Positions 19,829-60,929 of a stretch of 64,000 nt of DNA are shown in pieces. Under the pieces are notes generated by a model. It was not told the DNA's origin and ran no database searches. It worked only from the letters and a program-made list of their open reading frames with translations. The stretch is from a virus (lineage: Duplodnaviria; Caudoviricetes), in IMG/VR virus record IMGVR_UViG_3300033120_000579, positions 1 to 64,000 of that record; one strand, given 5' to 3'. A program made the translations under genes and the position numbers. The first letter of the stretch is position 1. Each line of letters starts with the position of its first letter.

Positions 19829-19840
19829 TATTAAATTAAA

Positions 19841-19911
19841 TGTGTTGTTTCCTTGAGAAAGAAATTACAGGTAACAAGAAACAGAGTGAGGGATCCGTTC
19901 ACTACAACACA
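19841..19911 (+). ncRNA. Candidate small structured RNA
   Basis: TGTGTTGT/ACAACACA closing stem, T-loop-like TGAGAA hairpin, GTGA/TCAC hairpin; terminator directly downstream. Confidence 0.4.
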
Positions 19912-19934
19912 AATGAATTCTCGACATTAAATAT

Positions 19935-19964
19935 AAAGGCTACTGTAACAGGTAGCCTTTTTTA
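19935..19964 (+). terminator. Intrinsic terminator
   Basis: AAAGGCTAC-TGTAACAG-GTAGCCTTT plus T tract. Confidence 0.8.
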
Positions 19965-19982
19965 TTAACTAAAAACTAAATT

Positions 19983-20171
19983 ATGAAAGATTGGAAATTT
20001 ATAAAACCCTCTGAAAATTTATCTTTAAAAGAAAAAATTTCTTATACAGAAGGTTATTTTTTAGCATTAAGTCAGATTCATAGTAATTTATCAGTAGATA
20101 CAAATGATAAAGAATTTAATCACTTAAATATTGAAATTCAAAAATATATGAGAAAATTAAAAAAATTATGA
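19983..20171 (+). CDS. Hypothetical protein
   Basis: 62-aa ORF coupled (ATGA) to primase. Confidence 0.5.
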   Translation: MKDWKFIKPSENLSLKEKISYTEGYFLALSQIHSNLSVDTNDKEFNHLNIEIQKYMRKLKKL

Positions 20172-21196
20172 CAATAGATTTAAATAAAACTAAAAAACTT
20201 ATTAGTAAAAAGGATATTTTAGATAGATTTAATGAAATTGAAATATTTCAAAAATATATCAATGAACCTATATTTTTAAATAAACTAATATTATCACCTT
20301 TACGTAAAGAGAAGAATCCTTCATTTGGATTCTTTATAGGTGAAAATAGAGAAATATGTTTTAAAGATTTTGTATTAGGTGCAGGAGATTTTGTTAAATT
20401 TATAATGTTGAAGTTTGGACGCTCATATTTTGAAGCTTTAAGTACAATTGCTTGTGATTTTGATTTACAAGATGAATTTATATGTAAAATATATAATAAA
20501 ACTAATTTTCAAAAATCTAAAACAACTCAGCCAACTAAAGATGAATTATTAGCTAAATATACTGGTTATAAATTAGGTAAAACTAAAAGAAATTGGCAAG
20601 ATCATGATACTTTATTTTGGCAACAATATGGGATTACTTTAGAAACTTTACAGAAATATAGAGTTGAAGCAATTAGTCTTATATTTATTGGAGATGACAT
20701 ATTTCCCGCAGATAAATATACATATTGTTTTAAAGAAATGAAAGATGGTATTGAGACATATAAAATTTATCAACCTTATAATGAGAAATATAAATGGATT
20801 AATAACCATGATAATTCTGTATGGCAAGGTTGGACACAATTACCTCAATCTGATGATCATTTGATTATTACTAAATCCTTAAAAGATGTAATGACTCTAC
20901 ACGAATTAGGATGGAATGCAATATCATTACAATCTGAAAATCTAATTCCAAAAAGACATGTGTTTCAACAACTAAAAGATAGATTTAAATACATTACAGT
21001 ATTATATGATAATGATTTTGATTCTGAAACTAATTGGGGAAAATTATTTGGTGATAAATTATCAACTGAGTTAGGTACTATAGAATGTTATATTGATGAT
21101 GAATATAAATGTAAAGATGTATCTGATTTAGTTAAAAAATATGGTAAAGTACAAGCTAAAGAAATTTTAGAAAAACATACATTATTACCATTTTAA
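20168..21196 (+). CDS. dnaG: DNA primase (TOPRIM)
   Basis: SPLRKEKNPSF, FKDF, ITKSLKDVM, YDND, KDVSD; crAss-type primase. Confidence 0.85.
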   Translation: MTIDLNKTKKLISKKDILDRFNEIEIFQKYINEPIFLNKLILSPLRKEKNPSFGFFIGENREICFKDFVLGAGDFVKFIMLKFGRSYFEALSTIACDFDLQDEFICKIYNKTNFQKSKTTQPTKDELLAKYTGYKLGKTKRNWQDHDTLFWQQYGITLETLQKYRVEAISLIFIGDDIFPADKYTYCFKEMKDGIETYKIYQPYNEKYKWINNHDNSVWQGWTQLPQSDDHLIITKSLKDVMTLHELGWNAISLQSENLIPKRHVFQQLKDRFKYITVLYDNDFDSETNWGKLFGDKLSTELGTIECYIDDEYKCKDVSDLVKKYGKVQAKEILEKHTLLPF

Positions 21197-43150: not shown

Positions 43151-46100
43151 TTATTTACCAAATCTACTGTTTAATCCATTATATAATTCTTCAGAAGTAA
43201 CTTCTAATTTACTTAATACTGGAATTAATTTTTCAGTTTTTCTAACAATTTTTAATTCACCTTTATTTTTACCTGTTTGATATTTATCATCAATTTCAGC
43301 CCAATTCCAAGGTAAAATATATTCAGCTACATCTAATGTTTGCTCAATAATTCTAAGTGATGGAATAGGACTTTTAGTAATTTTAGTAGCCTCTCTAGGA
43401 TCTCTAAATTGACTAAGTTCAGATTCTAATCTTCTTGATAAGAATGCAACTGTCCATAACCATTTGTTATCATCATCTCCATCTGCTGCACCTGCAGCTA
43501 ACATTCCAATTAATGGAAGTATTGCTCCAGTTAAAGCTAATTCCATTACAGACTTTTTAATACCAGCTTTTTTATCATCTGATAATTCATTCCAGTTAGA
43601 ACTTAATATATCAAATTTAAGTTGTCTTAAAGCAGGATAAACCCCATGAATAAGAAATCTAGCTGTACTTACATAAGAACCTTCTTCAGTAGTTCTAAGT
43701 GCGTTATTAAAATGAATATCTTCTTCAGTTAAGTTGTCTTGATGTTTATAAAATGATTGAGCACCTCTAAATCTAGCTACAGCTTGTGGTATTAAATAAC
43801 GTCTAAACAACATTATCATTTTACCCCACCAATGTCTATAAGCTTCAGGTTGTAAATTAGAATCATAATTACCCATTGTGTCAAAAATCTTTTTCTTTAC
43901 AAATAATAATAGTTGTTCCTTACCGCCTTCATTAAGTTTAGAACTTAAACTTCTATTAGTATAAACAACTTTATCATTCATTCTAACAATACCTTTATCA
44001 TCTTTAGCTAACATGTCTAATACTGATACAGCATCTTTTTCACTTACAATTTCACCATTTTTATTAATGTAATTATTATTAATATCCATAACTTTAATAG
44101 ATTCTAGTGTAGCCATAACCATAATAGATTGAACATAGTGTTCACCTCCAGAATGTAAAATTTGTAAAGATTCAAAATTGACTGCTGTTTTAGCAATACT
44201 ATTTTTAATAAATTCTTGTTGTTGAACTGTAAATCCACCAAAAGTATCAAACATTTGATTAACCTGATTTACAAATGATTGTTTAACTGGTCTAGAATAA
44301 TCTCCAAAAATATTAGGTAAATCTTTAGTATAAATTTCATTAGCTTTTTTAACAGAACCTTTAGTTAAATGATTACCTGCAACTCTTTCTAAAAATATTT
44401 GAGCTTGAGCATTTAAAACGTTTGCTGCTGCTGAAAATGTATTTAATGACAAACCTATAGAAGATACCCAACTATTAGTTGTACTAATAATTTTATTAAC
44501 ATCTAAAGGTCCCATTTTACCATAAGTAATATGAAATAAATCATAAATATTCTTTTCAATTAAATTACTAATCATTTTATATTCATTAGAATCAATACCT
44601 CTTTTAGTAGATTCTTTTTCTCTTTTAGCATATTTATTTAAAATAGAAATATTTCCTGCAGTTTTATTATAGTATTCTTTATTTTTAGCAATCATTTTAA
44701 TTGCTTCAACTTGTAATGAAATAGCTTGTTTTTCTTTGTAATTTATACCATTAATACGATTTAAACGATTGATTGTAAATAAGTCTAAAGATTGTTGATC
44801 TGGGCTAATATCACCTCTGTAATGAACTCTTAACATATTTACAGAATTACCTTTACTATCTAAACGTTGTTCAACATATCCAATATCATCAGGTCTAATT
44901 TCAGTTAAATCTTTCCAAGCATCTTTTAAAATACCTTTAGTATTACCTTCAAGAATTCTTTCTTCATTAGATTTGGTTACAGAAGGTAAATTATAATAAG
45001 TAATTCCTAAAAATGGTTGAATTAATGATTGAATACTATTAGTTTGAGTATCTGTAATTTTAGTATCACTAATAAAATGATTAAGAACTTCTTTTTCAAT
45101 TTTACTTAATTTAGATAAATCATTTTTCCATTTACTAGTTGGTATTTTAATTCCATCTACATTAACAGTATTATCTTTTATAAATTTAGAAAATTTATTT
45201 CTAGCTTTAATATATTCAACATCTTTAGAATTATTTTCAGAAGCTTTATATTTAGCTATTTTATCATTTTTTAATCTTAAATATTCTTCTCTAAATTTAA
45301 TAGAGTATTCTCCTTTATAATAAGCTTTACCAGTACTATCAAATTCTAATAAATTGGTATATAATTTAGTTGGGATACTAGAACCTCTTTCTTTAACTAA
45401 TTTATCAAATAATTCAGCATCTTTAAAATCACCTTCTCTAGTTTGTTCAATAATTTTTTCTCTAGCTTGAGTAATTAAGTTAAATGTAATACTAACTAAT
45501 CTAGAATTATTATTAATAGCATCCATAAATTTAACAGAAGCTGAAGAAATATCTGTTCCAATACCAATTAATAATAATTCAATTTCTTTATCTAAATCAA
45601 GTTGTATCTCATCTTTAAATGTAGTATTCATTTGTTGAGAAACCCATTCAGTTTGACTTATATTAGTTAAACCTCTTTGTTTAAATTCAGCATTTAATCT
45701 TTTTCTCCATTTATCTTCAATTTGAGGTAAATAATTAATATTATTTAATTGATTTTTAAGAATATCTATTAATTTACTATTAAGTCTTTTCTCTAATAAA
45801 TCATGTTTACCTGTTGCATCTGATATACTTTTTTCTATTTCATCAACAAGTTCTTGACCAACTTCATCAATTTTATCTTGATTTAAAGAAGTAATTAAAG
45901 TTGAAACATCATCAATTAAATCATAAGAAGACATATAACTTTTATACAATTCAATTATTTCTAAACCATTAGATTGAGTTAAATCTTCATTTTTAAGTCT
46001 AGTTTCTAATTGTTCAATTGTTGATAACATTGATTTAGTATAAACTGCTACACCTTTCCATTGATTAATTCCATCAACTTTATCTATTTCAGAAATTAAT

Positions 46101-47236
46101 TCTTTAATATGTTGTTCAAATTTAGTACCTTTGGCTTCATTATTTTTTTTATAAGACTTACTACGGTCTAATAAATTATCTAAATTATCTTTAGCTTTAT
46201 TTAAAGTTCTATTAAGTCTATCTTCGATTGTTTCAATTTTAGATTTAGAAGATTCTTTTTTATTAGCAAATATTAATTTTTGTAAATTAGTACCTCTATA
46301 ATCTCTTCTATCTTGTTGAACATAATCAACAACTTCTTCAATAAGTTTATCTATTTCCTTAGTCTTAGCTAATCCAAATAAGCGTCTTATAGCGTCAATA
46401 AATTGTTTCCAATATGAAGTATTATTTTCTCGATCTAAAGCTTTTAATTCTTCTCTAAATGCTTTATTAGCATATATTTCAGCTACAAATTCCTTTTCAT
46501 TTGTAAATCCATAACTTTGTATATCTAAAGAAAAATCTCCTATATCTTTAACACTTTTATCAACTTGTTTATTAAAATAATTAATATACCATTTATTAAT
46601 TAAATTTTTAAAATCTTTTTCTTCAAAAGTTTGAGGATTTAATAGAGCTTGTAATGTTTGAGAATGTGCTAATTCATGTAAAAATGTTTCAACTACTTCA
46701 TCTGTAGTAAAATTACCTAATCTTTGTCTATTTGCTTGAATTGTGTTAGTATCACTATTAATTTGCATAACAGTATTTTCATCAGACATTGCTACTTCAG
46801 ATACAAATTGAAATTTAGCTCCAGTTCTACCAATTAATCTTCTAGATTTTTCTAATAATTCAATACCAATAGGAGATAAATTCTTATAATTATTAAGAAT
46901 ATTTTCAAGAATTTCATCTACAGTAATCTTACCTTGTTGATTATTAAATAAAACTCTATTATTTTCATTAGAATAATCAATTGTTTCATCACTAATAACT
47001 TCAGTATTTTCACTCCAATCTAATTCATTTTTTTTAGACCCTTTAAGATTGTTAAAAATATTTTCAACTTTTTCAATTTGTTCAGATTGAATTACATCTT
47101 CAACTTTAGGGTATGAATCTAAACCATTTTTATCTTGATATTGACTTATTCTCATTTCTAATAAAAGTGAAGGAAGCTTAGTAGCTTCCAACAACTCTTG
47201 AAATTCTTTTGAACTGGTGTTAATGCAGTTTACCAT
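43151..47236 (-). CDS. Large ejected virion (cargo) protein with N-terminal zincin-like HExxH domain
   Basis: FLHELAH..EFVAE; hydrophobic segment near C-terminus; follows virion RNAP; only Cys is residue 4. Confidence 0.75.
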   Translation of the reverse strand: MVNCINTSSKEFQELLEATKLPSLLLEMRISQYQDKNGLDSYPKVEDVIQSEQIEKVENIFNNLKGSKKNELDWSENTEVISDETIDYSNENNRVLFNNQQGKITVDEILENILNNYKNLSPIGIELLEKSRRLIGRTGAKFQFVSEVAMSDENTVMQINSDTNTIQANRQRLGNFTTDEVVETFLHELAHSQTLQALLNPQTFEEKDFKNLINKWYINYFNKQVDKSVKDIGDFSLDIQSYGFTNEKEFVAEIYANKAFREELKALDRENNTSYWKQFIDAIRRLFGLAKTKEIDKLIEEVVDYVQQDRRDYRGTNLQKLIFANKKESSKSKIETIEDRLNRTLNKAKDNLDNLLDRSKSYKKNNEAKGTKFEQHIKELISEIDKVDGINQWKGVAVYTKSMLSTIEQLETRLKNEDLTQSNGLEIIELYKSYMSSYDLIDDVSTLITSLNQDKIDEVGQELVDEIEKSISDATGKHDLLEKRLNSKLIDILKNQLNNINYLPQIEDKWRKRLNAEFKQRGLTNISQTEWVSQQMNTTFKDEIQLDLDKEIELLLIGIGTDISSASVKFMDAINNNSRLVSITFNLITQAREKIIEQTREGDFKDAELFDKLVKERGSSIPTKLYTNLLEFDSTGKAYYKGEYSIKFREEYLRLKNDKIAKYKASENNSKDVEYIKARNKFSKFIKDNTVNVDGIKIPTSKWKNDLSKLSKIEKEVLNHFISDTKITDTQTNSIQSLIQPFLGITYYNLPSVTKSNEERILEGNTKGILKDAWKDLTEIRPDDIGYVEQRLDSKGNSVNMLRVHYRGDISPDQQSLDLFTINRLNRINGINYKEKQAISLQVEAIKMIAKNKEYYNKTAGNISILNKYAKREKESTKRGIDSNEYKMISNLIEKNIYDLFHITYGKMGPLDVNKIISTTNSWVSSIGLSLNTFSAAANVLNAQAQIFLERVAGNHLTKGSVKKANEIYTKDLPNIFGDYSRPVKQSFVNQVNQMFDTFGGFTVQQQEFIKNSIAKTAVNFESLQILHSGGEHYVQSIMVMATLESIKVMDINNNYINKNGEIVSEKDAVSVLDMLAKDDKGIVRMNDKVVYTNRSLSSKLNEGGKEQLLLFVKKKIFDTMGNYDSNLQPEAYRHWWGKMIMLFRRYLIPQAVARFRGAQSFYKHQDNLTEEDIHFNNALRTTEEGSYVSTARFLIHGVYPALRQLKFDILSSNWNELSDDKKAGIKKSVMELALTGAILPLIGMLAAGAADGDDDNKWLWTVAFLSRRLESELSQFRDPREATKITKSPIPSLRIIEQTLDVAEYILPWNWAEIDDKYQTGKNKGELKIVRKTEKLIPVLSKLEVTSEELYNGLNSRFGK

Positions 47237-50200
47237 TATTTACATTTTTTAATATACTCTTTAACATATTCTTCTCCAAATTCTCGAATCATATCATTAA
47301 ATTGTTCTTCATTAATATTACTTTCTTCCATTACTTCTTTATTTTGAATCCATAATTTATCTTCTAATTCAGATTCTTTTTTAACAATAACATTCTCTCT
47401 ATAAAATATATCTCTAGGATAAATAGCTTCATTATTAAAAAACTCTAATTGTTGTTTATTCATAATTCCAGCAATACCTTTAGTAGGTTCTCTAAGATTA
47501 ATACCTTCTATATCAAAGTTAATAATTCTATTACCTTTCTTATCTTTTACATTAAGATTTTTAATATCAGTGTATTCACCATTAATATTAGGAATGAATC
47601 TAGTATAAATTCCTTGATAGTTTGAATTATATCCAATTAATTTATAATAAATTGGTGGTAAACCTTGATCATTCTTTTTAATTCTAAAATAACTTACTTT
47701 ACCAGGTTTCTTAACCAAGAATCCATTCAAATTTCTTAATTCTTTTTGAATTTGACCATCTGTAATATTTTTAACAAACTTAGTATCTTCTAAATTAGAT
47801 AAAAAGAATTGATCTATAAAATTATCATCATTAAATTCTTCATAACCATCATATTTAAATGATGTATCAATTATATATCTATTGATATTATTTCTATTAA
47901 ACCATTGTGTAGGAATCATAGTAAAGAATTGACTCATATGATTATTAAATCCAGATGTTAAATATGAATATTTAATAAGTTTATTAGCAAATTCTTCATG
48001 ATCATTTAATAAATCTAAAAATGAATTAGTCATACTATCTTCAAATTCTTTAGATTTTTTTCTATTATTTAAACCTACAAATTGTAGAATATCACCTTGT
48101 TTAATAGTCATTTGATCTATAATAGAATATAAACCTTCATTATCTTCTTTAAATAATTCAAATTCTTTAACAAAATTTAAAGTTAAATCTCTTCTTTCTT
48201 GATTAGTCATTTTAAGTGGTTGAAAACCTGACATAATATAACTATAAAAAGTTTTATCTAATTGTTTACTTAAATTTTGATCTAATAATACTTCATTATT
48301 AACATTATGTGATATTTCATTAAAAGTATCTTGAATAGTGTCATTAGCAATTAAGAATAATTTAGGATTAGCTTTAACTATTTGTTCAGGTTTAATAATT
48401 ATATTTTTATAATATTTACTAAACATACTTTCAGAACCATTTGGATTTGTAAATTTAGAACTAAACCCTAATATAATATTTTTCTTAAATTTAATTTTAT
48501 CTTCATAAGATAAATTATTATATTTTTCTTCGGCATCTAATATAGAATCTACAGCATTTTTAGATATAATTAATGAATTAACACTACCTCCAATACCATT
48601 TACCATAAATTTAGATGCATCAATATTAGTTTTAATTGCTTTAGATGCGGATTGATATTCTAAAAAAGTATTAAATACATCCATTTGAAATTTATCATCA
48701 ATATCCAATATATTACTTCTTAATGTATTTAAATTTTTATTAAAAATATTACCTTTAAAATAATTTTTATATTCTTCTTGACCAAATCTTTGTTTAATAA
48801 AAGCTTCCATAGTACTAAGACCTTGATTTTGAGAACTTTCATATTGTTCAGAAAATTCTACATATTCTTTAATAACTGGCTGTGCTAAGAAAGCATTTAC
48901 ATAAAATGGATGTACACCTTTACGAAGTAACAAATTACCTGTATTAGTTGTCATAGTAACCCAATTACCTTCTGTGATATATGGATCTTTAGCTATATCT
49001 ACAAATGCATTAAGAATTGCAGATAATGAATGTCCAATTTTAATAGATTTTAATTTATTAACTTCTTCTTTACTAAGATTTAATTCTTTAGCATAATAAT
49101 CTAAATCAGATTGAGATAATTCTTGTGAATATTCCATATCTAACTTATCATTACTTCTAGGAACTTCAAAATTAGTTATATTTAAATCAGCTAAACTTCC
49201 TAATACATAATCCATTAATGAGTTAGCTTGTTGTCCTACACCAGCTTTACCCGCTAAGAAACTATATTTAACATCTATATCTTTTAATTGATTAAATGTA
49301 GATAAATTAGTTGTAGGTGCTACTTTAGAAATACTTCTAATATCATTTTTAATATAATCAAAATCTACAGGTGTCATTACTTCACCAATAACATTTTCAT
49401 TTAATAAAACAGATTTATATAACTCTATTAATCTATTTTGTAAAGCTTCTTTAGTTTGTTCTGATTCAGGTTTAGAATTATCATAATTTTGATAAACTAA
49501 TTTATTATTTTCAACTTTATAAGCTGGAAACATTAGATACATTTTATCAATATCATAATCAGACCCTGTTTTAGTAGTAATACCTGTATAAGCTACAACA
49601 GTATCACCAGTTTCTTCTGGTAATATTCCAACTATTTCTAAAGCATCATTAGAAGATAATCCTTGATTAGGAATTCTATATCCAATAATATTTTCTAATA
49701 TTCTTTTATCAATTACTTCATTAAATAATTGTTCTGCTGTATATTTTTTATAATCTGGAATATATTTAGCTATAAAACTACCTGATAATAATATACCACC
49801 AGGTCTAATTACTTTTTTACCATTTTCAGATAATATAAATTCACCATTTTCATCTTTAAGAAATTGTGGCTCATGAGTAGTAGATAGCGCTCTAGGACTC
49901 CATATAACACCTTGTTTATTAGCATTTTCTTTATTAAGTCCAAAGTTACTCATTTGAATAAATGACCCACCATTAGTCTTAATTTTAAGAATTCTTTTAG
50001 TTAAGATAGAACTGAATATATTTTGTAATTTATCTTTAGCTTGAGCTACTCCATAAATACTAATTTCAGATTCTAAAGCATCAATAACATTTTGTGAACC
50101 ACCTCTAGATTTTAATTCAGATATAATAGAATTATAAAATCCTTCAATATTAGTTATAGTTCCATCTTCAGTAACTCCAAATTCTTTTAATACTGATTCA

Positions 50201-53200
50201 TAACCTAAGTTTGATAATTCACCAATCACATTAGCAATATTTCCAATCATTTGATTACCTGAAACTTCTTCATTATTTAAAATAAATTCTTTATCTAAAT
50301 TAAAAGCAAGACCTTGAAATATATTCTTTTGAATTTGAGAACCTACTTCAGTATCATGCATTCCTTTAACAGGTAAATCTTGTTGAAGTTTCCATCCATT
50401 AGAAGGAATTGTAAATGGTTTAAATTCAAAATTATCTAAAAGTTGACCATTATCATTATGAATCTTAGTTGGTTGATTAGAGCCTACTTTAATTGCATCA
50501 AATGTAACTAACTCATCAACTTCTTGAGCAATCATTTGATCATATATTTTTTCAAGTTCATTACCTTTACGTAGTTTAGGTGATAAAACAGCTTGTGAAT
50601 ATTTAAGAAATATTGGAATTCCATCTACAACTTGAAAGTAAACACCTTTTAATGGTGGAGCTACAGCTTTTAACTCTTCTACAGTAAATGGTTCATTATT
50701 ATTACCAAGTAATTTTTCATATACAGAATCATAAATATTATTCCATTTACCAATAGATTGTACTAAAGTTTTCCATCTAGTTGGAGTAATCCAAGCTTGT
50801 GCATCTGCAGAATTAATATTTTTATATTTATTAGCTAAATCTTCACCTAATAATTCAACTAATTCTGGTAAAAAAGGTGAAGCTATCTCAACACTTTCAA
50901 TTGAAGCAATTGTATAATCTTTATTAATATTATCTAATCTTTGATATAATCCATCTGTATATGTAGCAGGTACTCTTTTTTTATAATCTATTGCATTTTT
51001 ATAATATGCAACATCTCCTGCAAACATTTTAGAATATTCAACATGAGATATTAATGAATTTATAAAGAAATCTGCAGAAGCTTTTAATGCATTATCAGAT
51101 TTATAAGACTCCCATATTTTAGTATCCAGTTCTTTATTAACAATACCTTCTGAAGTTTCTTCAAATATTTTATTCTTAATTAAGTTATCTAAAGTTTCTT
51201 GAATACCATTTGATAATTCATTACTTATATAAAATTTAATATCTGATTCAAATTGTGAACCTTTTAATGTACTTAAATAAGCATTACCATTAGCATTATA
51301 TATGTTTTTAAAATTTAAATCTGAACCTTTTAAAGTATTGTTAATTTTATCAAATGATAATGATGGAAATAATTGTGATTTAAATGCATGTCCAGCTCCT
51401 AAATGATAATAAGTTCTTAATTTATCACTATTTTTAGGATCATTCATAAACTCACGTTCAAATTTCATTCTTTTGTATTCAACATCAAAATAGTTAAAAA
51501 CTATATCGATAGCTTCATTATTAATAATGATATTATCATTATCTCCATATCTAGCATTAGTAGATAAATTTCTACTAATTGCTAATTCATATTGGGTTCC
51601 TTTATCAGCAGGAGTTGTGGTTCTATAAAAAGATTGAACTCCTTTAGTAAAACCTAATACTTTATTAATTGTATCTGAAATATATTCTTGTTTTGAAATA
51701 GTTTTATTATCTTTACCTTCTCTTGCATTTTCATCCATTTGATAAGTATTAAAAGAATATATTTCTAATTCATTAATACGTTTTTGAGATTCTTTAATTC
51801 TTTCTTGTTCTTGAACAGGTGGTGGTAAAAACTCATTAACTTGATATGTATTATCTAAAGCTAATAAATATTTCATCCAATCAGAACCTTCATTATATTT
51901 AGAAACTTCATAATGTTTTAAAAGAATATTTCTATCTTTTTTCCAAGCTTTAATTGTATTAGATAAATATGAAGGATATGAATAAACCCACTTCTGTTTA
52001 CCTGCGGTAAATACAGAAGCATCAGAACCTTCAGATATATAAAAAGCTTCAGCCTTAGCTAATTGCTTAAATACAGTTTGATCTGATAAAACATTATCAT
52101 AATTCTTATTTTTATTATCAATAATATTTTTAATAAAATAATTTATATCATTAATTGCTTTAGTAAATATAGTTTTAGATAATTCATTATCATTATTAAT
52201 AAGTTTTAAATCATCAATAAAATGTTGGAATCCTTTATTAGTACTTTCAACACCTAGTTTTCTAAGAATATTAACTATATTTTGAACATTATCTAATTGA
52301 TCATATTTAATTTTATTTAATTCAGTTCTAATATTAGTTAACTTATCTCTATTTTCTTTAGAAATAGTATTATCATCTGTAACAAATTTAGATTTGAAAT
52401 TTTTATTCCATTCATTAAAGATATCAGATTCTTTTTTACCAGTTTCAGATATATTAATATTAGTTACTTCTTTAGTACCATCTTCATTATATTTATTAAT
52501 AGTAGTATTATAATTATTAGTATCTAAATTAAATGCTTGACTAAATTCATCTTTAATATTATTACTTAAATCTGATTGAGATAAAATTCTATATAATTCT
52601 TTAAAATAAGGTTTCTTATTTTCAAATTTTAATATTTCAGATTTTAATATTTCAAATTTATCTTCTTGAACAGCATCTTTAATAATTGCAATTTGATTTG
52701 TTAACTGAGGTAATAATGATGCATATATTTCATCAAAAGATTTATATACAGTATCATTTAAGAAATCATCTTGTTGAATAGTATCTTCAATTAAAGATAA
52801 TCTTAATTTAACATTAGCTGAAATATTATTTTTAGTTGTTCTTTCATTTGAAGATATACCAAATCCTGGATCTTTTTCATTCTCATTAATTTCAATTTCA
52901 GATAAATCAATATCTTCAATATCGTTAAATTTTTCAGAATATTTAATCTTATAAGTTTCTAATGAATTAACTACATTTTTTACAATTTCATCTAAATTTT
53001 CATTTAATGCAATTTCTAATAATTCAGCAGTATCTTCAAATAAATAATCACCACTATCTTTAAATATATTAATTCTTTCATTTAATTTATTAACAATACT
53101 ATCTCTAATTGAAATAGTTTTTGTATTCAAATCAATATTTTCAAAATCAATTTTTAGATTATTTTTAAAATAGTTATTAACAAGTACTTTAGTAATACGT

Positions 53201-53556
53201 TCAATTTGTTCATTTGAAAATAAAGATTTTAATGATTTAGTATTTTCAATAATTTCAACTTTATTCTTATCTTTATCTATATAATAATAGTTACCATTCT
53301 TTTCATTCTTAAAAAGTTTAGGTTCACCATTTTCTTCAATACGAGATATTTCTTGTTGATAACTATAATCTACAGATTGCATTAAAGGTTCTATACCATA
53401 ATCATCAACCCAATTACCAAAATTAGTTAAGAAATCAATATCGTTTTTAAAATAGGAATGAAGAGTTATTGCTAACTCCTCATCACCATTATAAGCTTCT
53501 AGTATTGTATTATATAAATTGGATTCTTGTCCATTTACTTCAAATTTACATGCCAT
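47236..53556 (-). CDS. crAss-like virion RNA polymerase
   Basis: 2106 aa; GYRIPNQ and KTGSDYDIDKMY (DxDxD), ADAQAW, VDIAKD; size and motifs as in phi14:2 gp66-type enzymes. Confidence 0.9.
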   Translation of the reverse strand: MACKFEVNGQESNLYNTILEAYNGDEELAITLHSYFKNDIDFLTNFGNWVDDYGIEPLMQSVDYSYQQEISRIEENGEPKLFKNEKNGNYYYIDKDKNKVEIIENTKSLKSLFSNEQIERITKVLVNNYFKNNLKIDFENIDLNTKTISIRDSIVNKLNERINIFKDSGDYLFEDTAELLEIALNENLDEIVKNVVNSLETYKIKYSEKFNDIEDIDLSEIEINENEKDPGFGISSNERTTKNNISANVKLRLSLIEDTIQQDDFLNDTVYKSFDEIYASLLPQLTNQIAIIKDAVQEDKFEILKSEILKFENKKPYFKELYRILSQSDLSNNIKDEFSQAFNLDTNNYNTTINKYNEDGTKEVTNINISETGKKESDIFNEWNKNFKSKFVTDDNTISKENRDKLTNIRTELNKIKYDQLDNVQNIVNILRKLGVESTNKGFQHFIDDLKLINNDNELSKTIFTKAINDINYFIKNIIDNKNKNYDNVLSDQTVFKQLAKAEAFYISEGSDASVFTAGKQKWVYSYPSYLSNTIKAWKKDRNILLKHYEVSKYNEGSDWMKYLLALDNTYQVNEFLPPPVQEQERIKESQKRINELEIYSFNTYQMDENAREGKDNKTISKQEYISDTINKVLGFTKGVQSFYRTTTPADKGTQYELAISRNLSTNARYGDNDNIIINNEAIDIVFNYFDVEYKRMKFEREFMNDPKNSDKLRTYYHLGAGHAFKSQLFPSLSFDKINNTLKGSDLNFKNIYNANGNAYLSTLKGSQFESDIKFYISNELSNGIQETLDNLIKNKIFEETSEGIVNKELDTKIWESYKSDNALKASADFFINSLISHVEYSKMFAGDVAYYKNAIDYKKRVPATYTDGLYQRLDNINKDYTIASIESVEIASPFLPELVELLGEDLANKYKNINSADAQAWITPTRWKTLVQSIGKWNNIYDSVYEKLLGNNNEPFTVEELKAVAPPLKGVYFQVVDGIPIFLKYSQAVLSPKLRKGNELEKIYDQMIAQEVDELVTFDAIKVGSNQPTKIHNDNGQLLDNFEFKPFTIPSNGWKLQQDLPVKGMHDTEVGSQIQKNIFQGLAFNLDKEFILNNEEVSGNQMIGNIANVIGELSNLGYESVLKEFGVTEDGTITNIEGFYNSIISELKSRGGSQNVIDALESEISIYGVAQAKDKLQNIFSSILTKRILKIKTNGGSFIQMSNFGLNKENANKQGVIWSPRALSTTHEPQFLKDENGEFILSENGKKVIRPGGILLSGSFIAKYIPDYKKYTAEQLFNEVIDKRILENIIGYRIPNQGLSSNDALEIVGILPEETGDTVVAYTGITTKTGSDYDIDKMYLMFPAYKVENNKLVYQNYDNSKPESEQTKEALQNRLIELYKSVLLNENVIGEVMTPVDFDYIKNDIRSISKVAPTTNLSTFNQLKDIDVKYSFLAGKAGVGQQANSLMDYVLGSLADLNITNFEVPRSNDKLDMEYSQELSQSDLDYYAKELNLSKEEVNKLKSIKIGHSLSAILNAFVDIAKDPYITEGNWVTMTTNTGNLLLRKGVHPFYVNAFLAQPVIKEYVEFSEQYESSQNQGLSTMEAFIKQRFGQEEYKNYFKGNIFNKNLNTLRSNILDIDDKFQMDVFNTFLEYQSASKAIKTNIDASKFMVNGIGGSVNSLIISKNAVDSILDAEEKYNNLSYEDKIKFKKNIILGFSSKFTNPNGSESMFSKYYKNIIIKPEQIVKANPKLFLIANDTIQDTFNEISHNVNNEVLLDQNLSKQLDKTFYSYIMSGFQPLKMTNQERRDLTLNFVKEFELFKEDNEGLYSIIDQMTIKQGDILQFVGLNNRKKSKEFEDSMTNSFLDLLNDHEEFANKLIKYSYLTSGFNNHMSQFFTMIPTQWFNRNNINRYIIDTSFKYDGYEEFNDDNFIDQFFLSNLEDTKFVKNITDGQIQKELRNLNGFLVKKPGKVSYFRIKKNDQGLPPIYYKLIGYNSNYQGIYTRFIPNINGEYTDIKNLNVKDKKGNRIINFDIEGINLREPTKGIAGIMNKQQLEFFNNEAIYPRDIFYRENVIVKKESELEDKLWIQNKEVMEESNINEEQFNDMIREFGEEYVKEYIKKCK

Positions 53557-53558
53557 AA

Positions 53559-56500
53559 TTATTTACATCTTTTTTTGTATTCTTGAGGATACATTTCTTT
53601 AAACATTTCAAAATCTCTTAATTCTTTTTCAGTAGTTAAAGTTCCCTCTTGTTTCTTTTTAAATAAAACATCCATTCTTCTAAAATCAGTTTGTCTTTCT
53701 TTAGGAGTTCTTTTAGTATCAAAAACTTTATCTTGAGTTTCTTTTATTTCAGTATTTTCCACAGTTCCAGGTATTTCTGACAAAGATAAGAAATTTTCTT
53801 GAGAATTCCTATTATTTTGTTGATTATTTTTAAATCTTTTAATTACTTCAGATAAAGCTTCTTTAGGATAACCTTTTTCATCTACATTATTTCTCCAAAA
53901 TTCTTCCGCTTTTTCTTCTATAGTTTTTTCTTTTTCAAACAAATCATCAAATCCTGTATTATCAGCTTTAACTTCAACACCTGCTTCTGAAACTTTTGGT
54001 TGATTAGCTACTGTAATACCTGTATTTAAATAAATATTAGTATAACCTTGAAATGTTGGTTCATTAACTACTGCATTTGTAGATAATATATTATTATCAA
54101 CTAAATATTTAAGATAATCTGCAGAATTAGATTTAAGATTAGTTTTGGTATTATCTGTTTCAGATTTCATATTAATTTTAATCTGATGTCTTTTTTGGTT
54201 AACTAAAAAATCTGTAATATTTACTTGTGCTAAATCTATAAATTTTGGAGTTGTAAATTGATCTCCATAATATAAGACACCATTTTCAATTCTTATTCTA
54301 GATTTAATATTATCAGATTGATATACTAATAAATCTACAATTTCTTGAAGTTTAATATCATTTTTATTACCACCAATTATATTTAATTCTGCTTCAAAAT
54401 TAACTGTAATTGCTTCTTTCAATTCTTCATTAATTTCAGAAATAGTTGTATCCAATGATTTCTCATTAGTTATAATCTCTTTATAAATTTCATAAAGTAA
54501 ATAAGCTTCACTTTCACTAATCTTTTTAATATTAAGTTTGAGTGGAAAAAGTTTACCATTAGCTTGAGGAATAGTTAAATATATTTCACCTGCAGCATTT
54601 GGTTTAATTTTATCATTGTTAAATTCAAATATTTTATCATTTAATATATTTTGCAATTTACCAAATGAATTAACTACATATAAATTTTCTCTAATATAAT
54701 TTAAATCTTTAACTCCGTCTAATTGAAGAATATTATTATTAGCAAATCTATTTTCATCTACTTTTAATATACCTTTATATTGATCTTGAATTGTAGTTTT
54801 AATATCATTAATATCAATACCTTTAATTAAATTATTAACAATATCAATTCTTAATAACTCTGTAGCAGGATTGATTTCATCTGTAATTCTTCTAGTTTCA
54901 ATTGGAGCTTTAACTTCATTTGTAAATTGTACATTTATAGGTAAATAATCTATTAGTAATTTAGGATTAGAAAAATCTTTATTATTAAATGCATTTAAAG
55001 CTTCTAATACTTTAGGATTTTTACCAGGATTTTGATTAATTTCAAATCCAACTTCCTTACCAGATTTATTAACAGGTTCTCTCTCGTATTCTAAATATAA
55101 AGGAAATTGTTCTGATATAAATTGTAATGGTAATCCAGTATTTCTATCTGTACTAATAACTTTAACACCTAACCCGCTATCTACTTCACTATTTTGAATA
55201 CTATTAAGCTCTTCTACTGTATTATTTTCAGCTTCTTGAGGTATAAGTTCATCTGTAATAACTGAACCTTCTGTAGCTGTTAAACCATCATAAGTAGTTA
55301 CATTATTGAAATCATTATCTTCTTGTGTAGCATCTTCTCTTTCTTGATTATTAATAACTTCTTCAACAGCAATAATTTCAGCTTCTTTTTCATTAGCTTG
55401 TTGTTGAATTATTGTATCTGCTGGAGTATCTGTTTTAGGAAGATTTTGAAGTTCATCTACAGTTGTAGCATTAGTTATAATTTCAGTAGCTTTATTTACA
55501 ATAGCTTCATTTTCAAGACTAGCTTGTTCTCTTAATTTATTATTATCTTTAATATGTTCTGCAAATTGTTTATTTACATCTTCATCGTTCCAAATAGTAC
55601 CATTAATAATTTCTTCTATTTCAGATATTTCTTTTTCTATAGATTCAATTTGATTATTTATTAATTTAACTCTAGGGTCTGTATCAGTTTTTTTAAATTT
55701 ATAAATTTCTTCTGAAACACCTTCAATAAAGTTTTCATTTAATTCTCTAGTTAATTCATTACTACCCAAATCTTTTAATAATTTAGATTTTTGAATATTA
55801 AGTTTTTTAAGTTCTCCTTTTTGAAAATATTCTGAACCTTTAAGATTAATATATAAATCTCCTAACATATTATAATAATCTATAGTATCTTGAGGAGTTG
55901 CATTTGGATTATCAAGATTAATTAAACTTTTACTAAAATCTTTATAAGTATTTAATTGATCTTGCATATATGTAGCTTGTTCAATTATTTTAGTTTTTAA
56001 AGTTTTAGCATCTTCATTATTAACTATTTCTTCAGTTTTTAAAGTTTCATCTAAATATTGTGATAAAGCTTGAATACCTAATTCACCTTTATTAATGAAT
56101 GGAGTTATAAGTTGATTTATTGCTTCATTCTTTAAAGTTTGAATCACTTGTTCATTACCTTCTTGAATAGCTTGATCAAATAATTGACTTTGTTGTTCAG
56201 TATAATTTAAAGCTTTAGCTACATCTCTTACTTTTACAGGATCATATTGAGGTTGATTATTTTTATAAATAATATCACCATTTTGGTCTCTTTTATAAGT
56301 ATCTGTTTCATTAATTCTATTAAAAGAACCAACTTTTTCTTCAGCTAAACTAAGCACATCTTGAGTTTGTTTACGTGTAGCTATATCAGATTTAGCTCCT
56401 TGATAAGCTGACACACCACTACCTAGAAATCCACCTAAAAAGATTGCTTTTTGACCATCTGTAGTATTTAAAGTATCAATATAACTAGAAACTAATTCAG

Positions 56501-57659
56501 GAATGTTAAAATCTTTTAACATATTGTTAGTTAACTGTCCTTTATTAGCTTTATCTGTAAACATTGTTTCAACAGTAGATTGAGTACCTTCTTCTAAAAA
56601 ACCTTCAGAGGCAGTCGCACCTAATATATTCTTAGTTCTATTACTAATTTTACTCATTAATGAAGGAGTATCTTTAACTAATTGACTACCAACGCCTTTA
56701 CCCCAAATCATCTTAGTTTGAATTGCATTTGGAACTAAAAGTATAGCTAGATTAGATACAAATATATCTCTACCTAATCTAGCTTTTTGAATTTGTAATT
56801 CTTCATATTGAGTTTGATCTATTTCACCAGAAGCTAATCTTCTATCTATATCTTTTTGAAAACTATCCATTGCTGAACCAGCTTCTGAACCAGATTCAAA
56901 TAAAGTATTAGCCATTGTCATCGCTCCTAAATCTATATTATTGGCAGTTATACCTAAACTTTCTAAAGTATTAACAGCTCCAGCTAATTTAGATTCACCA
57001 TTTATCATAGATAAACCTTTAGCAGTAGTACCTAATACTTTCTCACCTAAATTAAGACTTTTTAAAGCTGCTCCAGGTGCAAACATAGATGCTATAAAAC
57101 CTATACCGTCAGCACCTTCGGTAGCCCAGAAATCTATAGATGTTATATTATCCATAAGATTTCCTTCTGAAACTGCTTTTTTTACATATACTGGTAATAA
57201 TTCAGTATTGATATTTTCATTTAATTGAGATAAAGATTTAATCCATTGATTATTAAAAGCAGTATCCCAACCCTCACCTTCTTCTGCAAATGGAGCGGCT
57301 AATATACCACCAACAACTCCAGGCATTTTTAATATTTCTGTTACAGCTTTTGTACCAATTCTACCAATACCTGCTCCAATTTTAGCTAAATTAGATTGAG
57401 ATTGTGCTCTATTTTCATTAATAGAACCTATTGGATCTAATTCATCTAATTGAGAATCAAAATTAAATTCTTCATCATATTTAGAATCACCAAACCCAGT
57501 ATTATAGTATAATTTATTAGAATAAACTTTACCTAAATCTGTAAAATTATTAGGTTTATCTAAATTTTGAGCTACACTTCTAAAAGTTTTAGTTTTAGGT
57601 TCTCCAGGAGAACTGTTTATATTTGGACTTGAATTATTTACCAATTGAGCCATAAGCAT
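53559..57659 (-). CDS. Large ejected virion (cargo) protein
   Basis: 1366 aa; Gly/Ala-rich amphipathic N-terminal part with SEGFLEEGTQ; only Cys is penultimate. Confidence 0.75.
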   Translation of the reverse strand: MLMAQLVNNSSPNINSSPGEPKTKTFRSVAQNLDKPNNFTDLGKVYSNKLYYNTGFGDSKYDEEFNFDSQLDELDPIGSINENRAQSQSNLAKIGAGIGRIGTKAVTEILKMPGVVGGILAAPFAEEGEGWDTAFNNQWIKSLSQLNENINTELLPVYVKKAVSEGNLMDNITSIDFWATEGADGIGFIASMFAPGAALKSLNLGEKVLGTTAKGLSMINGESKLAGAVNTLESLGITANNIDLGAMTMANTLFESGSEAGSAMDSFQKDIDRRLASGEIDQTQYEELQIQKARLGRDIFVSNLAILLVPNAIQTKMIWGKGVGSQLVKDTPSLMSKISNRTKNILGATASEGFLEEGTQSTVETMFTDKANKGQLTNNMLKDFNIPELVSSYIDTLNTTDGQKAIFLGGFLGSGVSAYQGAKSDIATRKQTQDVLSLAEEKVGSFNRINETDTYKRDQNGDIIYKNNQPQYDPVKVRDVAKALNYTEQQSQLFDQAIQEGNEQVIQTLKNEAINQLITPFINKGELGIQALSQYLDETLKTEEIVNNEDAKTLKTKIIEQATYMQDQLNTYKDFSKSLINLDNPNATPQDTIDYYNMLGDLYINLKGSEYFQKGELKKLNIQKSKLLKDLGSNELTRELNENFIEGVSEEIYKFKKTDTDPRVKLINNQIESIEKEISEIEEIINGTIWNDEDVNKQFAEHIKDNNKLREQASLENEAIVNKATEIITNATTVDELQNLPKTDTPADTIIQQQANEKEAEIIAVEEVINNQEREDATQEDNDFNNVTTYDGLTATEGSVITDELIPQEAENNTVEELNSIQNSEVDSGLGVKVISTDRNTGLPLQFISEQFPLYLEYEREPVNKSGKEVGFEINQNPGKNPKVLEALNAFNNKDFSNPKLLIDYLPINVQFTNEVKAPIETRRITDEINPATELLRIDIVNNLIKGIDINDIKTTIQDQYKGILKVDENRFANNNILQLDGVKDLNYIRENLYVVNSFGKLQNILNDKIFEFNNDKIKPNAAGEIYLTIPQANGKLFPLKLNIKKISESEAYLLYEIYKEIITNEKSLDTTISEINEELKEAITVNFEAELNIIGGNKNDIKLQEIVDLLVYQSDNIKSRIRIENGVLYYGDQFTTPKFIDLAQVNITDFLVNQKRHQIKINMKSETDNTKTNLKSNSADYLKYLVDNNILSTNAVVNEPTFQGYTNIYLNTGITVANQPKVSEAGVEVKADNTGFDDLFEKEKTIEEKAEEFWRNNVDEKGYPKEALSEVIKRFKNNQQNNRNSQENFLSLSEIPGTVENTEIKETQDKVFDTKRTPKERQTDFRRMDVLFKKKQEGTLTTEKELRDFEMFKEMYPQEYKKRCK
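53781..53811 (-). promoter_or_regulatory. Internal promoter ~225 nt upstream of virion RNAP gene
   Basis: Minus strand TAGGAATTCTCAAGAAAATTTCTTATCTTTG; first 12 nt identical to the 33031 promoter. Confidence 0.6.
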
Positions 57660-59433
57660 TTAATATAAATTCTTGAAATTTTGCATCAGGAAACTCCTGA
57701 TCTACATTTGTACCATCATTATCGATATAAGATAAATTATAACTATTTTTATTTTTATTATATTTAATTTCTACATTTTTTAAACCGTATGCTTCAAATA
57801 AAGGAGATTTGATTTCATGATAAATACCAGGTTGAATGTCTGCAATTTTACTAATTCCACTAATAGTTTCCATAGCTTTAAATTGAGGAGTATTAAAATC
57901 ATCAGCACCTCTACTTACATATACAGTTTTAACTTCACCAGTTTCTTTATCAATTAAAACTCCTGTTCTAGCACCAATATTTTGTTTAGGATTTGTAAAT
58001 TTATTACCAATATTAGATTTAGGTGTCATATCTCCACTATATGTGAAAGTAAAATTACCTAATTCATTTTTATCAATTTTATTACCATCTTCATCTACCA
58101 TATCATAAGCTCCTCTTTGAACACGTTCTAAAATAAGATTACCTGCTTTTTCTTTACTATCTTTACCTGTTAATTCTTTACTTGCAAACAACATTGCTTG
58201 TGGGTTTGTATTAGGATCTACATATCTATTTTGAACAGTTACATCTTTATTATCTTCTAAATATTTAGTCACAGCATTCTGAACTTTTTGACTTTTTAAA
58301 TCTGAACCAAGTTTTTGGGTTCTAGCAATACCTCTAGCTAATTTTAAATATTCTTGAGAATCTAAGGTTTCTTTTTTTGCTTTTTCTTTAAATTGTGCAG
58401 TATTTAAATTTTGTTTAATTCCAGCTCTAGATGCAACAATATCAATTGGTTGATTATCACTATATGAAATATTTCCTTTTAATCTATTTAATAAATCAGA
58501 ATTTTTAGTAATACTAACACCTTCAACATTAACTGCTTCTAAATTTCCTTCTTCTACATCTTTTTTAGTAAAACCTTGAACATTATAATCAGTTTCTCTA
58601 GTATCATCTAATTTATAAGTTTTCATCATACCTAAACCATTATTAATTTCATTAATAATTCTTTTAGGATCAATTCTTTCAAAATTAGCTGAAGCAGTTC
58701 CTTCACCTGTTGAATTAATCCATCTACTAGCCAAATAATCTTGAGCTTCTTTTAGTTGAGGTATATTACTAGTTTCAACAACTCTACCTTTACCATCCAT
58801 TACAACAAGACTACCATTCGGTCCTTCTTGAAAACTAAATCCATTATTTTTCATAATAGTTCTAGTATTTTCTCCAAGTAAAGATTTTACAGTTTTTAAA
58901 TCTTCCTGTAAAATTAACCTTTTAGGTGCACCATAAGGTGTAATATTAGTTATGTTTTTATTTTCATCAAAACCTGTATATTTAGGTTTATGTAATGTTT
59001 CCCAATTATATAAAGCATCTTCTCTAGAAAAACCTTTATTTTTAGTAGCATCTTCTAAATATTCTTTAAAATTATCAGCATAAACTTTTTTAGCTGTATT
59101 AATTTGACCTAATCTACCTGTTGGAGATATAAGATTCTGATATTCTCTATTTAATGCTAAAAATTGTCCTTGTGTATTTGAATTAACACCTTCTCTACTT
59201 AATAATTCAGCTTGAGATGTTAATTTATCTTCTATTTGAGATTTAAGATTTAAAGCTTCATTCATATGTACATCCAACGGATCAACTTTAGCAAGACCCT
59301 GTTTTAATAACTCCTGTTGAGCTATTAATTGATCATGTTTTTGTCTTTGCATTAAAGGTGTATAAAGTATCTCTTGCATTGATAATGGAGAGAATTTTGA
59401 AACACTTCCTGAACTATAACGATTTACTGCCAT
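57634..59433 (-). CDS. Virion cargo protein
   Basis: 599 aa, Cys-free, MAVNRY..F.PLS..E N-terminus, in cargo gene block. Confidence 0.65.
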   Translation of the reverse strand: MAVNRYSSGSVSKFSPLSMQEILYTPLMQRQKHDQLIAQQELLKQGLAKVDPLDVHMNEALNLKSQIEDKLTSQAELLSREGVNSNTQGQFLALNREYQNLISPTGRLGQINTAKKVYADNFKEYLEDATKNKGFSREDALYNWETLHKPKYTGFDENKNITNITPYGAPKRLILQEDLKTVKSLLGENTRTIMKNNGFSFQEGPNGSLVVMDGKGRVVETSNIPQLKEAQDYLASRWINSTGEGTASANFERIDPKRIINEINNGLGMMKTYKLDDTRETDYNVQGFTKKDVEEGNLEAVNVEGVSITKNSDLLNRLKGNISYSDNQPIDIVASRAGIKQNLNTAQFKEKAKKETLDSQEYLKLARGIARTQKLGSDLKSQKVQNAVTKYLEDNKDVTVQNRYVDPNTNPQAMLFASKELTGKDSKEKAGNLILERVQRGAYDMVDEDGNKIDKNELGNFTFTYSGDMTPKSNIGNKFTNPKQNIGARTGVLIDKETGEVKTVYVSRGADDFNTPQFKAMETISGISKIADIQPGIYHEIKSPLFEAYGLKNVEIKYNKNKNSYNLSYIDNDGTNVDQEFPDAKFQEFILNAYGSIGK

Positions 59434-60929
59434 TATTTTCTTTTATTTTTAAATAAGTAACCACCTAAAGCTTTAGAATTACTATCAATTAATATTCCAG
59501 CTTTTCTAGCGGCTACTTCAGTTTCTTCAGATGTTGCTGTAGGATTCATTTTTTGATATTCTCCAAGCCAATTATATCCAGTAGTTGTACTAGCTATTTT
59601 TTTATATATTTCTTCTTTACCAATATCACCAATTCCATTTCCAATTTCAGCTAAATATTTAGAACGCTCATTATTGTAAGCTGCTTCATTTCTATCATTA
59701 ATATCTAATTCTAAATTATCTTGTTGTAAATTAGTAGCATTAATTCCAGCATTAAATTGTTGACCCTGTACATTAGTTGCCCTATTTTGAGCTTCTGCAT
59801 TTATATAGGCTTCTGATAAAGCTTTAGTTCTATTAAGACCTGCTCCTAAAATATTATTTCTTAATGCTCCAATAGAACCATTACTAGCTCCACTTAAAGA
59901 ATTAATAGTATTATTAGTTTCATTAGATATAATATTTTGTAAACTTCTTTCATCTACATATTCAGGATTAAATCTTTGATCTAATCTATTAAGTTTTGAA
60001 TAACTAGGTTTTTCTAATTCTGATAATTGATAAGCATTCATAGCAATTGGTGTATATCTGGCAGCTTGCCCTAAAGTACTTCCTAATTTAGATAAATCTG
60101 CTTTAGGTAGTTTATAACTTTCTGGAATAATTAAACCATTAGATTCTAGATTAATCCCCTCTGTAATAGCTAAATCATTAATAATCGTATTATCAATACC
60201 TAATCTTTTTAATTTTTCAATTTCTAATAAATCAGCATCTGGATTTAAAGGACCTCCTTTAGCATACATTTTACCACCATAAGCAAAATCATTACTAAAT
60301 TGATTACTTTCTTTAATATGTTTTCTTCTATTAGCTGCTTCTTCTTCAGATTTATTACCTAATTTAGAAATAAATCCACCAGCTAAATCTCCAACTACAC
60401 CACCAATCATTCCACCAATTGGACCACCAATAGCAGTTCCTGCAATAGTAGTACCTGCTTTAACACCTGAATTCAAAGCTTGTTCATTATTTCCAGTTGC
60501 TAAATTAGTTATAGAATCTATCCCTGATTCAACTCCTGGTAATGACATCATTTCCATTTCACCACCTAAAAACATTTGATTTTGACCTAATGTATTTCCA
60601 GGTTCAATTGGTTTCATTAATTCTTGAGCTTCTGCAATTTTAGATAACATTCCGTCTTTAGTAGATAATGAAATTTTATCATTTCTATCTTTAAATTTAT
60701 TATCTATAAACTTAGTAGCATCTGCCATAGTTTTATTAGTTAAAGATTTAGGTAGGTTATATTGTTTAATTATTTCAGGAGTAAGTTTAATTCTATTACT
60801 ATAAACAAAACCATTTTGAACAGTTTCTCCTTCTTCTACAGTATTATTGCTATTCATAGGCACACCACCTAGAATATTTTCTGAATGTAGTCCTCCTTCA
60901 TCAATTTTAGTTAAATCATTTTTTCTCAT
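59433..60929 (-). CDS. Virion cargo protein (crAss C1-like)
   Basis: GGLHSENILGGVP..VEEGET..VYSNR N-terminus, A.GG repeats, Gly-rich TM-like segment; Cys-free. Confidence 0.65.
   Translation of the reverse strand: MRKNDLTKIDEGGLHSENILGGVPMNSNNTVEEGETVQNGFVYSNRIKLTPEIIKQYNLPKSLTNKTMADATKFIDNKFKDRNDKISLSTKDGMLSKIAEAQELMKPIEPGNTLGQNQMFLGGEMEMMSLPGVESGIDSITNLATGNNEQALNSGVKAGTTIAGTAIGGPIGGMIGGVVGDLAGGFISKLGNKSEEEAANRRKHIKESNQFSNDFAYGGKMYAKGGPLNPDADLLEIEKLKRLGIDNTIINDLAITEGINLESNGLIIPESYKLPKADLSKLGSTLGQAARYTPIAMNAYQLSELEKPSYSKLNRLDQRFNPEYVDERSLQNIISNETNNTINSLSGASNGSIGALRNNILGAGLNRTKALSEAYINAEAQNRATNVQGQQFNAGINATNLQQDNLELDINDRNEAAYNNERSKYLAEIGNGIGDIGKEEIYKKIASTTTGYNWLGEYQKMNPTATSEETEVAARKAGILIDSNSKALGGYLFKNKRK

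Follow-up and report, generated by a model that had tools for sequence, protein, structure and literature searches.

Facing terminal cysteines that may tie the virion RNA polymerase cargo of crass-like phages into one chain

The tail of crassviruses is narrow, and how ~700 kDa of protein associated with the polymerase can pass it, and in which order, is an open question (PMC10172136, PMC13434306). This question is raised here by a stretch of 64,000 nucleotides (nt), positions 1-64,000 of the IMG/VR record IMGVR_UViG_3300033120_000579 (hereafter, the window), which, judged by its sequence, is part of a crAss-like phage genome. The genes of the window are co-oriented on the minus strand throughout 43151-63429, and their predicted order, namely, muzzle protein, cargo proteins 1 and 2, protein A, virion RNA polymerase (RNAP) and protein C, is that of the known virion RNAP cargo block of Crassvirales. 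We propose that A, RNAP and C, whose cysteines (Cys) in the window all lie at ends that face each other, are probably linked covalently through these residues and so amount to a single polypeptide, with disulfides as the most likely bond.

Cysteine placement in the cargo block of the window

Five minus-strand open reading frames (ORFs) at 43151-60929 encode a total of 5,930 amino acids (aa), only four of which are Cys. First, protein A, the putative first link (53559..57659, 1366 aa), has its sole Cys at the second-last position, 1365, encoded by a TGT codon at 53565..53567, within the tail ...EYKKRCK. Second, the RNAP, an enzyme of the two-barrel type that would form the middle link (47236..53556, 2106 aa), has Cys only at positions 3 and 2105, the latter again the second-last residue; this protein starts with MACK and ends with ...EYIKKCK, and both of its Cys codons are TGT (53548..53550 and 47242..47244, respectively). 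Third, protein C, the putative last link (43151..47236, 1361 aa), starts with MVNC and has Cys4 (TGC, 47225..47227) as its only Cys. The outer ends of the proposed chain, that is, the N-terminus of A and the C-terminus of C, are without Cys, and cargo protein 1 and the second cargo protein have none at all. A first-pass annotation of this DNA had given these counts and positions, including the Cys-free outer ends, and our exact recount reproduced every number. The tight coupling of the genes that it described was likewise borne out by reading the sequence, with a 2-nt gap at the A/RNAP junction and a TAATG overlap at the RNAP/C junction.

The assignment of the three giant proteins comes from comparison with Cellulophaga phage phi14:2 and Bacteroides phage crAss001. 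Protein A is an orthologue of phi14:2 gp67 (blastp, 1e-84) and crAss001 gp47 (2e-08), and protein C of phi14:2 gp65 (blastp, 1e-127) and crAss001 gp49 (6e-28). The RNAP matches the structure of phi14:2 gp66 (phmmer to PDB 6VR4, E 1.4e-223), with a match to 6VR4_A that spans residues 51-1377 and 34% identity to phi14:2 by tblastn. Its catalytic DYDID (DxDxD) loop occupies residues 1333-1337 (49546..49560, minus strand), in the context GSDYDIDKMY, and in our RNAP alignment, A1, residues D1333, D1335 and D1337 are invariant and C2105 is nearly so; this is the DFDxD motif described for crAss RNAPs (bioRxiv 10.1101/2020.03.07.982082). A search of PHROGs gave no match for the three giants; in Pfam, A and RNAP had no match and those of C were all below the threshold. 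The nearest relative found is the IMG/VR contig L004, whose RNAP is 86% identical.

Could an AT-rich genome with few Cys codons have placed them at these termini by accident? The G+C content of 22-28% gives this explanation its starting point, but the other 55 window ORFs of at least 80 aa contain 189 Cys in 12,581 aa, or 1.50%. At this 1.5% background ~89 Cys would be expected in 5,930 aa, against the four observed (Poisson ~6e-33), and the probability that all four fall within 4 residues of the named termini by chance is ~3e-11 in the window alone. These figures, together with the recurrence of the pattern in relatives, refute chance or composition, an explanation to which we give practically no weight.

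The facing cysteines in relatives: conservation, fusions and splits

Two scans for IMG/VR relatives yielded 85 loci and, after removal of duplicates, 111 distinct boundaries between chain proteins; loci L012, L016 and L084-L086, which are fragmented under translation table 11, probably by stop-codon recoding or introns, were excluded from the counts. A boundary was scored as paired when one Cys lay no more than 12 residues from the upstream C-terminus and another no more than 7 from the downstream N-terminus. Both were present at 108 of the 111 boundaries, the exceptions being L042, where an ORF is truncated, L044, where one Cys is shifted to -32, and L079, where the supposed boundary involves a cargo protein and is false. 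The chain proteins contain 285 Cys in 385,103 residues, 246 of them terminal and 39 (0.010%) internal, with the terminal residues mostly at -1 to -3 from the C-terminus and mostly at positions 3 to 5 of the N-terminus. Mapping of Cys in orthologous triplets, as the first-pass annotation had suggested, thus finds the terminal residues conserved and reciprocal, and the pattern recurs at identities down to ~25%. Orthologues of cargo protein 1 in the relatives are nearly always Cys-free.

The sequences around these residues are far more variable than the residues themselves. In the last 160 aa of A (alignment A2, 46 phages, mean identity 13%) Cys is the sole invariant column, and the same is true of the first 320 aa of the RNAP (alignment A3, 51 phages); neither of these flanking alignments contains a conserved His, Asp or second Cys near the terminal Cys. 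The helix pattern that the first-pass annotation saw in both Cys-bearing C-termini holds, as EYxK(K/R)CK, for the window and the clade close to it (L003, L004, L017-L019), but further out only the Cys is kept. Lys is enriched beside both Cys, which would fit reactive thiolates, and residue 2 is usually Ser or Ala, so that after removal of Met the Cys would become the second residue.

The rule spans the families Steigviridae, Suoliviridae, Intestiviridae and Crevaviridae, including phages whose virions have been studied. The gp67-gp66-gp65 proteins of phi14:2 and gp47-gp50-gp49 of crAss001 are homologous to A, RNAP and C, and share with the window both the DxDxD loop and the terminal Cys, at ~34% and ~23% identity, respectively; the gene order of phi14:2 is also that of the window, whereas gene 47 is inverted in crAss001. 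In phi14:2, the sole Cys of g067 (1797 aa) is its final residue, those of g066 (2180 aa) are at 3 and 2179, and g065 (1421 aa) has one at 3 only. In crAss001, gp47 ends with ...RCNS, gp50 starts with MSKRC and has C2404 among its 2412 residues, and gp49 starts with MAKKC. Likewise, in p-crAssphage (Intestiviridae; analysed as BK010471) gp45 ends with ...SFSCM and gp44 starts with MSC, and the rule also holds in crAss002, cr107_1, the crevavirus cr127_1, eight Suoliviridae and the Flavobacterium phage FpV4. Mass spectrometry has shown that the cargo proteins are packed in the virions of phi14:2 and crAss001, and we infer that those of the window would be packed and ejected too. The papers found on these two phages do not mention these Cys or a link among the three proteins.

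Some Cys near the ends of other cargo-block proteins were also recorded. The first cargo protein of Intestiviridae has a lone Cys close to its C-terminus (...QSCR or ...FRCGGKKKIA; 5316-7889 in L102, which is p-crAssphage, 2891-4564 in L091 and 4189-6567 in L101), and a 598-aa protein of FpV4 (L104, 1808-3604) starts with MKKKC. In both cases the next protein is without an evident partner Cys, which could mean homodimers or another partner. In a separate locus (L017, 16891-22075), three genes of 781, 500 and 440 aa, with 7, 2 and 7 Cys, stand between RNAP and C, and the terminal Cys pair is still present.

The regularity of the N-terminal position, an 'M-x-C' rule, helps in the choice of true start codons for these giant cargo genes. 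For instance, the annotated start of gp33 in crAss002 (L091, NC_055828; 13586-13690) puts its Cys at position 35; read from an internal Met 32 codons further on, the protein begins with MSCTPSN..., exactly as its cr107_1 orthologue is annotated. The crAss002 annotation thus probably begins 32 codons too far upstream. The 170-nt spacer in front of this start is G+C-rich and contains inverted repeats.

Since both window junctions are tightly coupled and have an 11-nt string, ATGTAAATAAT, in common, the Cys codons could be the by-product of a signal at the nucleotide level, for example one for translational coupling or re-initiation, or an RNA motif. The relatives speak against it in three ways. 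First, crAss001 keeps the Cys rule even though its gene 47 is on one strand and its genes 50 and 49 are on the other. Second, the genes are 234-6,170 nt apart at 14 boundaries. Third, TGT and TGC are both used, all three stop codons occur and the C-terminal contexts are varied (C*, CK*, CGF*, CKTIN*, CVPF*). The inverted gene, the loci with large gaps and the varied contexts exclude such a signal, whose probability we regard as negligible.

A further comparison is provided by loci in which the chain is interrupted at other places, or not at all. First, L011 encodes a single fusion of all three proteins, 4,726 aa long and collinear with them, which has no Cys. Second, in the A+RNAP fusions of L066, L070, L072, L074, L075, L076, L079, L083 and FpV4, a cultured phage with a fusion protein of 4,287 aa, a single Cys remains, at the C-terminus, facing the MxC of C; in those of L069, cr108_1 and the gut Suoliviridae the boundary pair with C is accompanied by internal Cys. 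Third, in the RNAP+C fusions of L036, L045 and L068 the sole Cys is N-terminal, facing the C-terminal Cys of A. Fourth, L070 has an additional link, of 1167 aa, with Cys at 4 and 1166 and matching partners on both sides. Cys pairs therefore coincide exactly with the breaks between polypeptides and are lacking wherever the chain runs on without a break, that is, the pair behaves as a substitute for a peptide bond.

An internal control is provided by four loci in which the RNAP is split inside its catalytic motif, and where no Cys are found at the splits. In three of the loci with interrupted RNAP (L002, L065 and cr131_1) a Cys-rich ORF of ~215-243 aa, which starts with MKTKFNK, lies between the RNAP pieces. 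If such splits are of the intron type, as they look, absence of Cys is what would be expected of a mature protein that is continuous. The interruption falls within GSDYDID in L002 (14119-15050), L019 (14041-14290), L031, L065 (14260-15207), L098, which is cr131_1 (19428-20223), and L089, which is cr108_1 (17107-17398); this has the look of a mobile intron that carries a homing endonuclease and has entered the gene where it is most conserved.

On the RNAP tree there are at least four changes of architecture, and every independent contrast is concordant (2-4 for A/RNAP and three for RNAP/C, 5-7 in all). The central proposal of the first-pass annotation, that Cys has been purged except where it is needed to join A, RNAP and C in order, is thus strongly supported by comparison, given the conservation throughout the order, the sole invariant columns, the disappearance of both Cys wherever a junction is fused, and the gain of a pair at the extra split.

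Chemistry and role of the putative link

These comparisons lend strong support to a pairing of the facing Cys, and by themselves leave the chemistry unspecified. A precedent is found in the cyanopodophage A4 (A-4L), where cryo-electron microscopy of the pre-ejectosome revealed a disulfide, in the virion, between Cys1715 of gp27 and Cys5 of gp26 (PMC12002296). Our check of these sequences found that Cys1715 and Cys5 are the only Cys of gp27 (1717 aa) and gp26 (1114 aa). As in the window, the ejection-protein genes are consecutive and co-oriented, and a lone near-C-terminal Cys upstream faces a lone near-N-terminal Cys downstream. A4 differs in having one pair rather than a chain and no RNA polymerase; moreover, it has a pentameric ring in which a helix at the C-terminus sits in a cleft of the partner protein, whereas the C-terminal tails of the crassvirus proteins are unconserved and look flexible. 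Comparison of A4 gp26-gp29 with the five window proteins by blastp gave nothing below E 0.002, the best match being a short stretch; given this lack of sequence similarity, A4 would be a functional analogue and not a homologue.

The first-pass annotation had held the arrangement to be apparently undescribed, and this stands for crassviruses: full-text searches of their literature found no description of the Cys rule. It does not stand for the bond as such, since a disulfide between a near-C-terminal Cys and Cys5 had already been seen in A4, where it was reported as a single structural detail and not as a conserved rule (PMC12002296). The gene block and its fusions were also known.

A disulfide is the likely chemistry of the link. 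It is the simplest one in view of a single conserved thiol per terminus with no other conserved ligand, of the A4 precedent, and of the crAss001 virion, whose tail and portal vertex are rich in disulfides (PMC10172136). The facing termini might instead be joined through a shared metal ion (Zn, Fe or Cu) held with the help of nearby acidic or basic residues, or through a different reaction of the thiols, for instance a Lys-Cys bridge. The C-terminal Cys is indeed surrounded by acidic residues (-5 and -6) and by Lys (-3 to +1), and a link of this kind would sidestep the problem of thiol oxidation in anoxic habitats. However, the single conserved Cys of each terminus, with no conserved His, Asp or second Cys nearby, provides fewer ligands than a structural metal site usually has, and the only solved analogue, A4, has a disulfide, a bond of which the crAss001 virion makes wide use. 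We thus consider a link other than a disulfide unlikely.

Other ejected proteins are also poor in Cys. The RNAP of coliphage N4 (gp50, Schitoviridae), like that of the window, is a giant ejected polymerase with non-catalytic N- and C-terminal flanks, and the first-pass annotation was right in describing it as Cys-free: it has none in 3,500 aa, and neither do the co-ejected gp51 and gp52. In this it parallels the fully fused L011. It differs in its T7-like single-subunit fold and in being a single polypeptide that needs no link between proteins; the window RNAP, of the two-barrel type, matches 6VR4 only and has no homology to it. N4 RNAP is believed to cross the tail either in unfolded form or like a string of beads (PMC13434306). 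Among the T7 core proteins (L105, 1729-8552), gp15 (747 aa) and gp16 (1318 aa) have no Cys and gp14 has a single one, at position 2. A general avoidance of Cys in ejected proteins looks real on the basis of N4 and of T7 gp15 and gp16; a review of ejection proteins does not mention it.

A different role is also conceivable for the facing Cys, in which they act only after ejection, with the proteins leaving separately and then being joined by a DsbA-type periplasmic oxidase in a complex across the envelope, or in which each Cys binds a third partner, be it the portal, the capsid interior or a host factor. The periplasm is an oxidising compartment that has to be crossed; the scarcity of Cys in N4, T7 and A4 ejection proteins would fit avoidance of oxidation there; and the lone near-C-terminal Cys of the Intestiviridae cargo protein 1 has no obvious partner. 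A third partner cannot account, however, for the joint loss of Cys at every fused junction, the joint gain at the new split or the Cys-free outer ends, and the A4 bond is already present in the mature virion, which speaks against joining after ejection. Both versions together seem improbable to us.

In the tether that we favour, C1365 of A would pair with C3 of the RNAP, and C2105 of the RNAP with C4 of C, head to tail, with disulfides forming once the particle has left the reducing cytoplasm. The linked A-RNAP-C would then be the functional counterpart of a single polypeptide of ~4,800 aa, as encoded by relatives with fused genes and comparable to the 3,500-aa RNAP of N4. As the Cys lie at the extreme ends and leave stubs of just 1-3 residues, the joined chain would be nearly linear, and the removal of all other Cys would prevent wrong pairings. 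The chain may be extruded through the tail in gene order, and the host cytoplasm may then reduce the link and release the polymerase; both of these steps would fit the extreme terminal placement of the Cys and current models of ejection with partial unfolding.

Several points weigh against this tether. Virions are assembled in a reducing cytoplasm and the habitat of gut crassviruses is anoxic, which is a difficulty for disulfide formation. The evidence for a bond in crassviruses is comparative, and the independent events behind it are few, namely, 2-4 fusions or splits for A/RNAP, three for RNAP/C and one extra split, so sign tests for each boundary are non-significant even with all starred contrasts concordant (two for A/RNAP, three for RNAP/C). 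In cr273_1 and L044 the distance of the upstream Cys from the end is 50 and 32 residues, respectively, and in gut Suoliviridae, which keep the boundary pair, up to 27 internal Cys indicate that the purge is not absolute. Lastly, Drobysheva et al., who already noted gene fusions in the cargo block, expect the polyproteins to be cleaved into their components; if so, covalent continuity would be needless in those lineages. Within Suoliviridae, the internal Cys number 13-27 in the A+RNAP protein of Oafivirinae (L096, L098 and L100), recoded gut crassviruses, far above their marine relatives, and the purge is relaxed in this subfamily.

Two further analyses were made. Prediction of the complex between the last 70 aa of A and the first 320 aa of the RNAP, both given as alignments, reached a median score of 0.11, below the mark required for a verdict, and is given no weight in either direction. 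No phage redox enzyme (thioredoxin, glutaredoxin or Dsb) was found among the CxxC or Cys-rich ORFs of the window.

It is tempting to extend the tether to the whole of Crassvirales, and we do so tentatively, as a possibility in which we have less confidence than in the tether itself. Disulfides would replace peptide bonds, so that the products of two to four genes would form a single covalent thread, 4,800-7,000 aa long, with a fixed order of exit from the capsid through the tail; in the host cytoplasm the thread would be cut by reduction, which would free and perhaps switch on the RNAP that starts the infection. If a conserved covalent tether exists, it would give a concrete answer to how crassvirus cargo passes the tail and in what order, and would account for the free tolerance of gene fusions and splits in the cargo block. 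It would also connect this cargo with the single-chain RNAP of N4 and make the A4 disulfide a recurring principle. Such a redox-gated 'split polyprotein' would operate in the most abundant human gut phages and, considering A4, may be a general device of podovirus ejectosomes.

Other features of the cargo block and its surroundings

Upstream of the cargo block, the muzzle protein (61075..63429, minus strand) is a 784-aa ORF counted from the first ATG, with a frame that is open to the end of the window, and it matches Pfam crAss_MUZ (1.7e-88) and crAss_MUZ_C as well as PHROG 28748. It is followed on the same strand by the cargo protein 1 homologue (59433..60929, 498 aa; Pfam crAss_CARG1, E 4.6e-18) and by the second cargo protein (57634..59433, 599 aa), which is syntenic with phi14:2 g068 and crAss001 gp46. 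All five proteins of the cargo block end in Lys (...CK, ...CK, ...GK, ...GK and ...RK), a residue that is common (~10%) in this AT-rich genome.

Protein C contains, at residues 187-191 (46664..46678, minus strand), a HELAH sequence that matches the HExxH pattern and is a candidate zincin site. A weak, sub-threshold match to the SprT-like Pfam family covers residues 159-196, and the motif is in line with the zincin-like domain that has been reported for phi14:2 gp65.

On the plus strand, a 316-aa ORF at 4225-5175 has a reverse-transcriptase domain (RVT_1, E 2.5e-14), which could be of the type found in diversity-generating retroelements, as in some crAss-like phages; no template/variable repeat pair of at least 60 nt was found near it within the window. 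Just upstream of the cargo block, and also on the plus strand, a 291-aa ORF at 41268-42143 matches spore photoproduct lyase, a radical-SAM DNA repair enzyme (Pfam SPL, E 3.3e-22).

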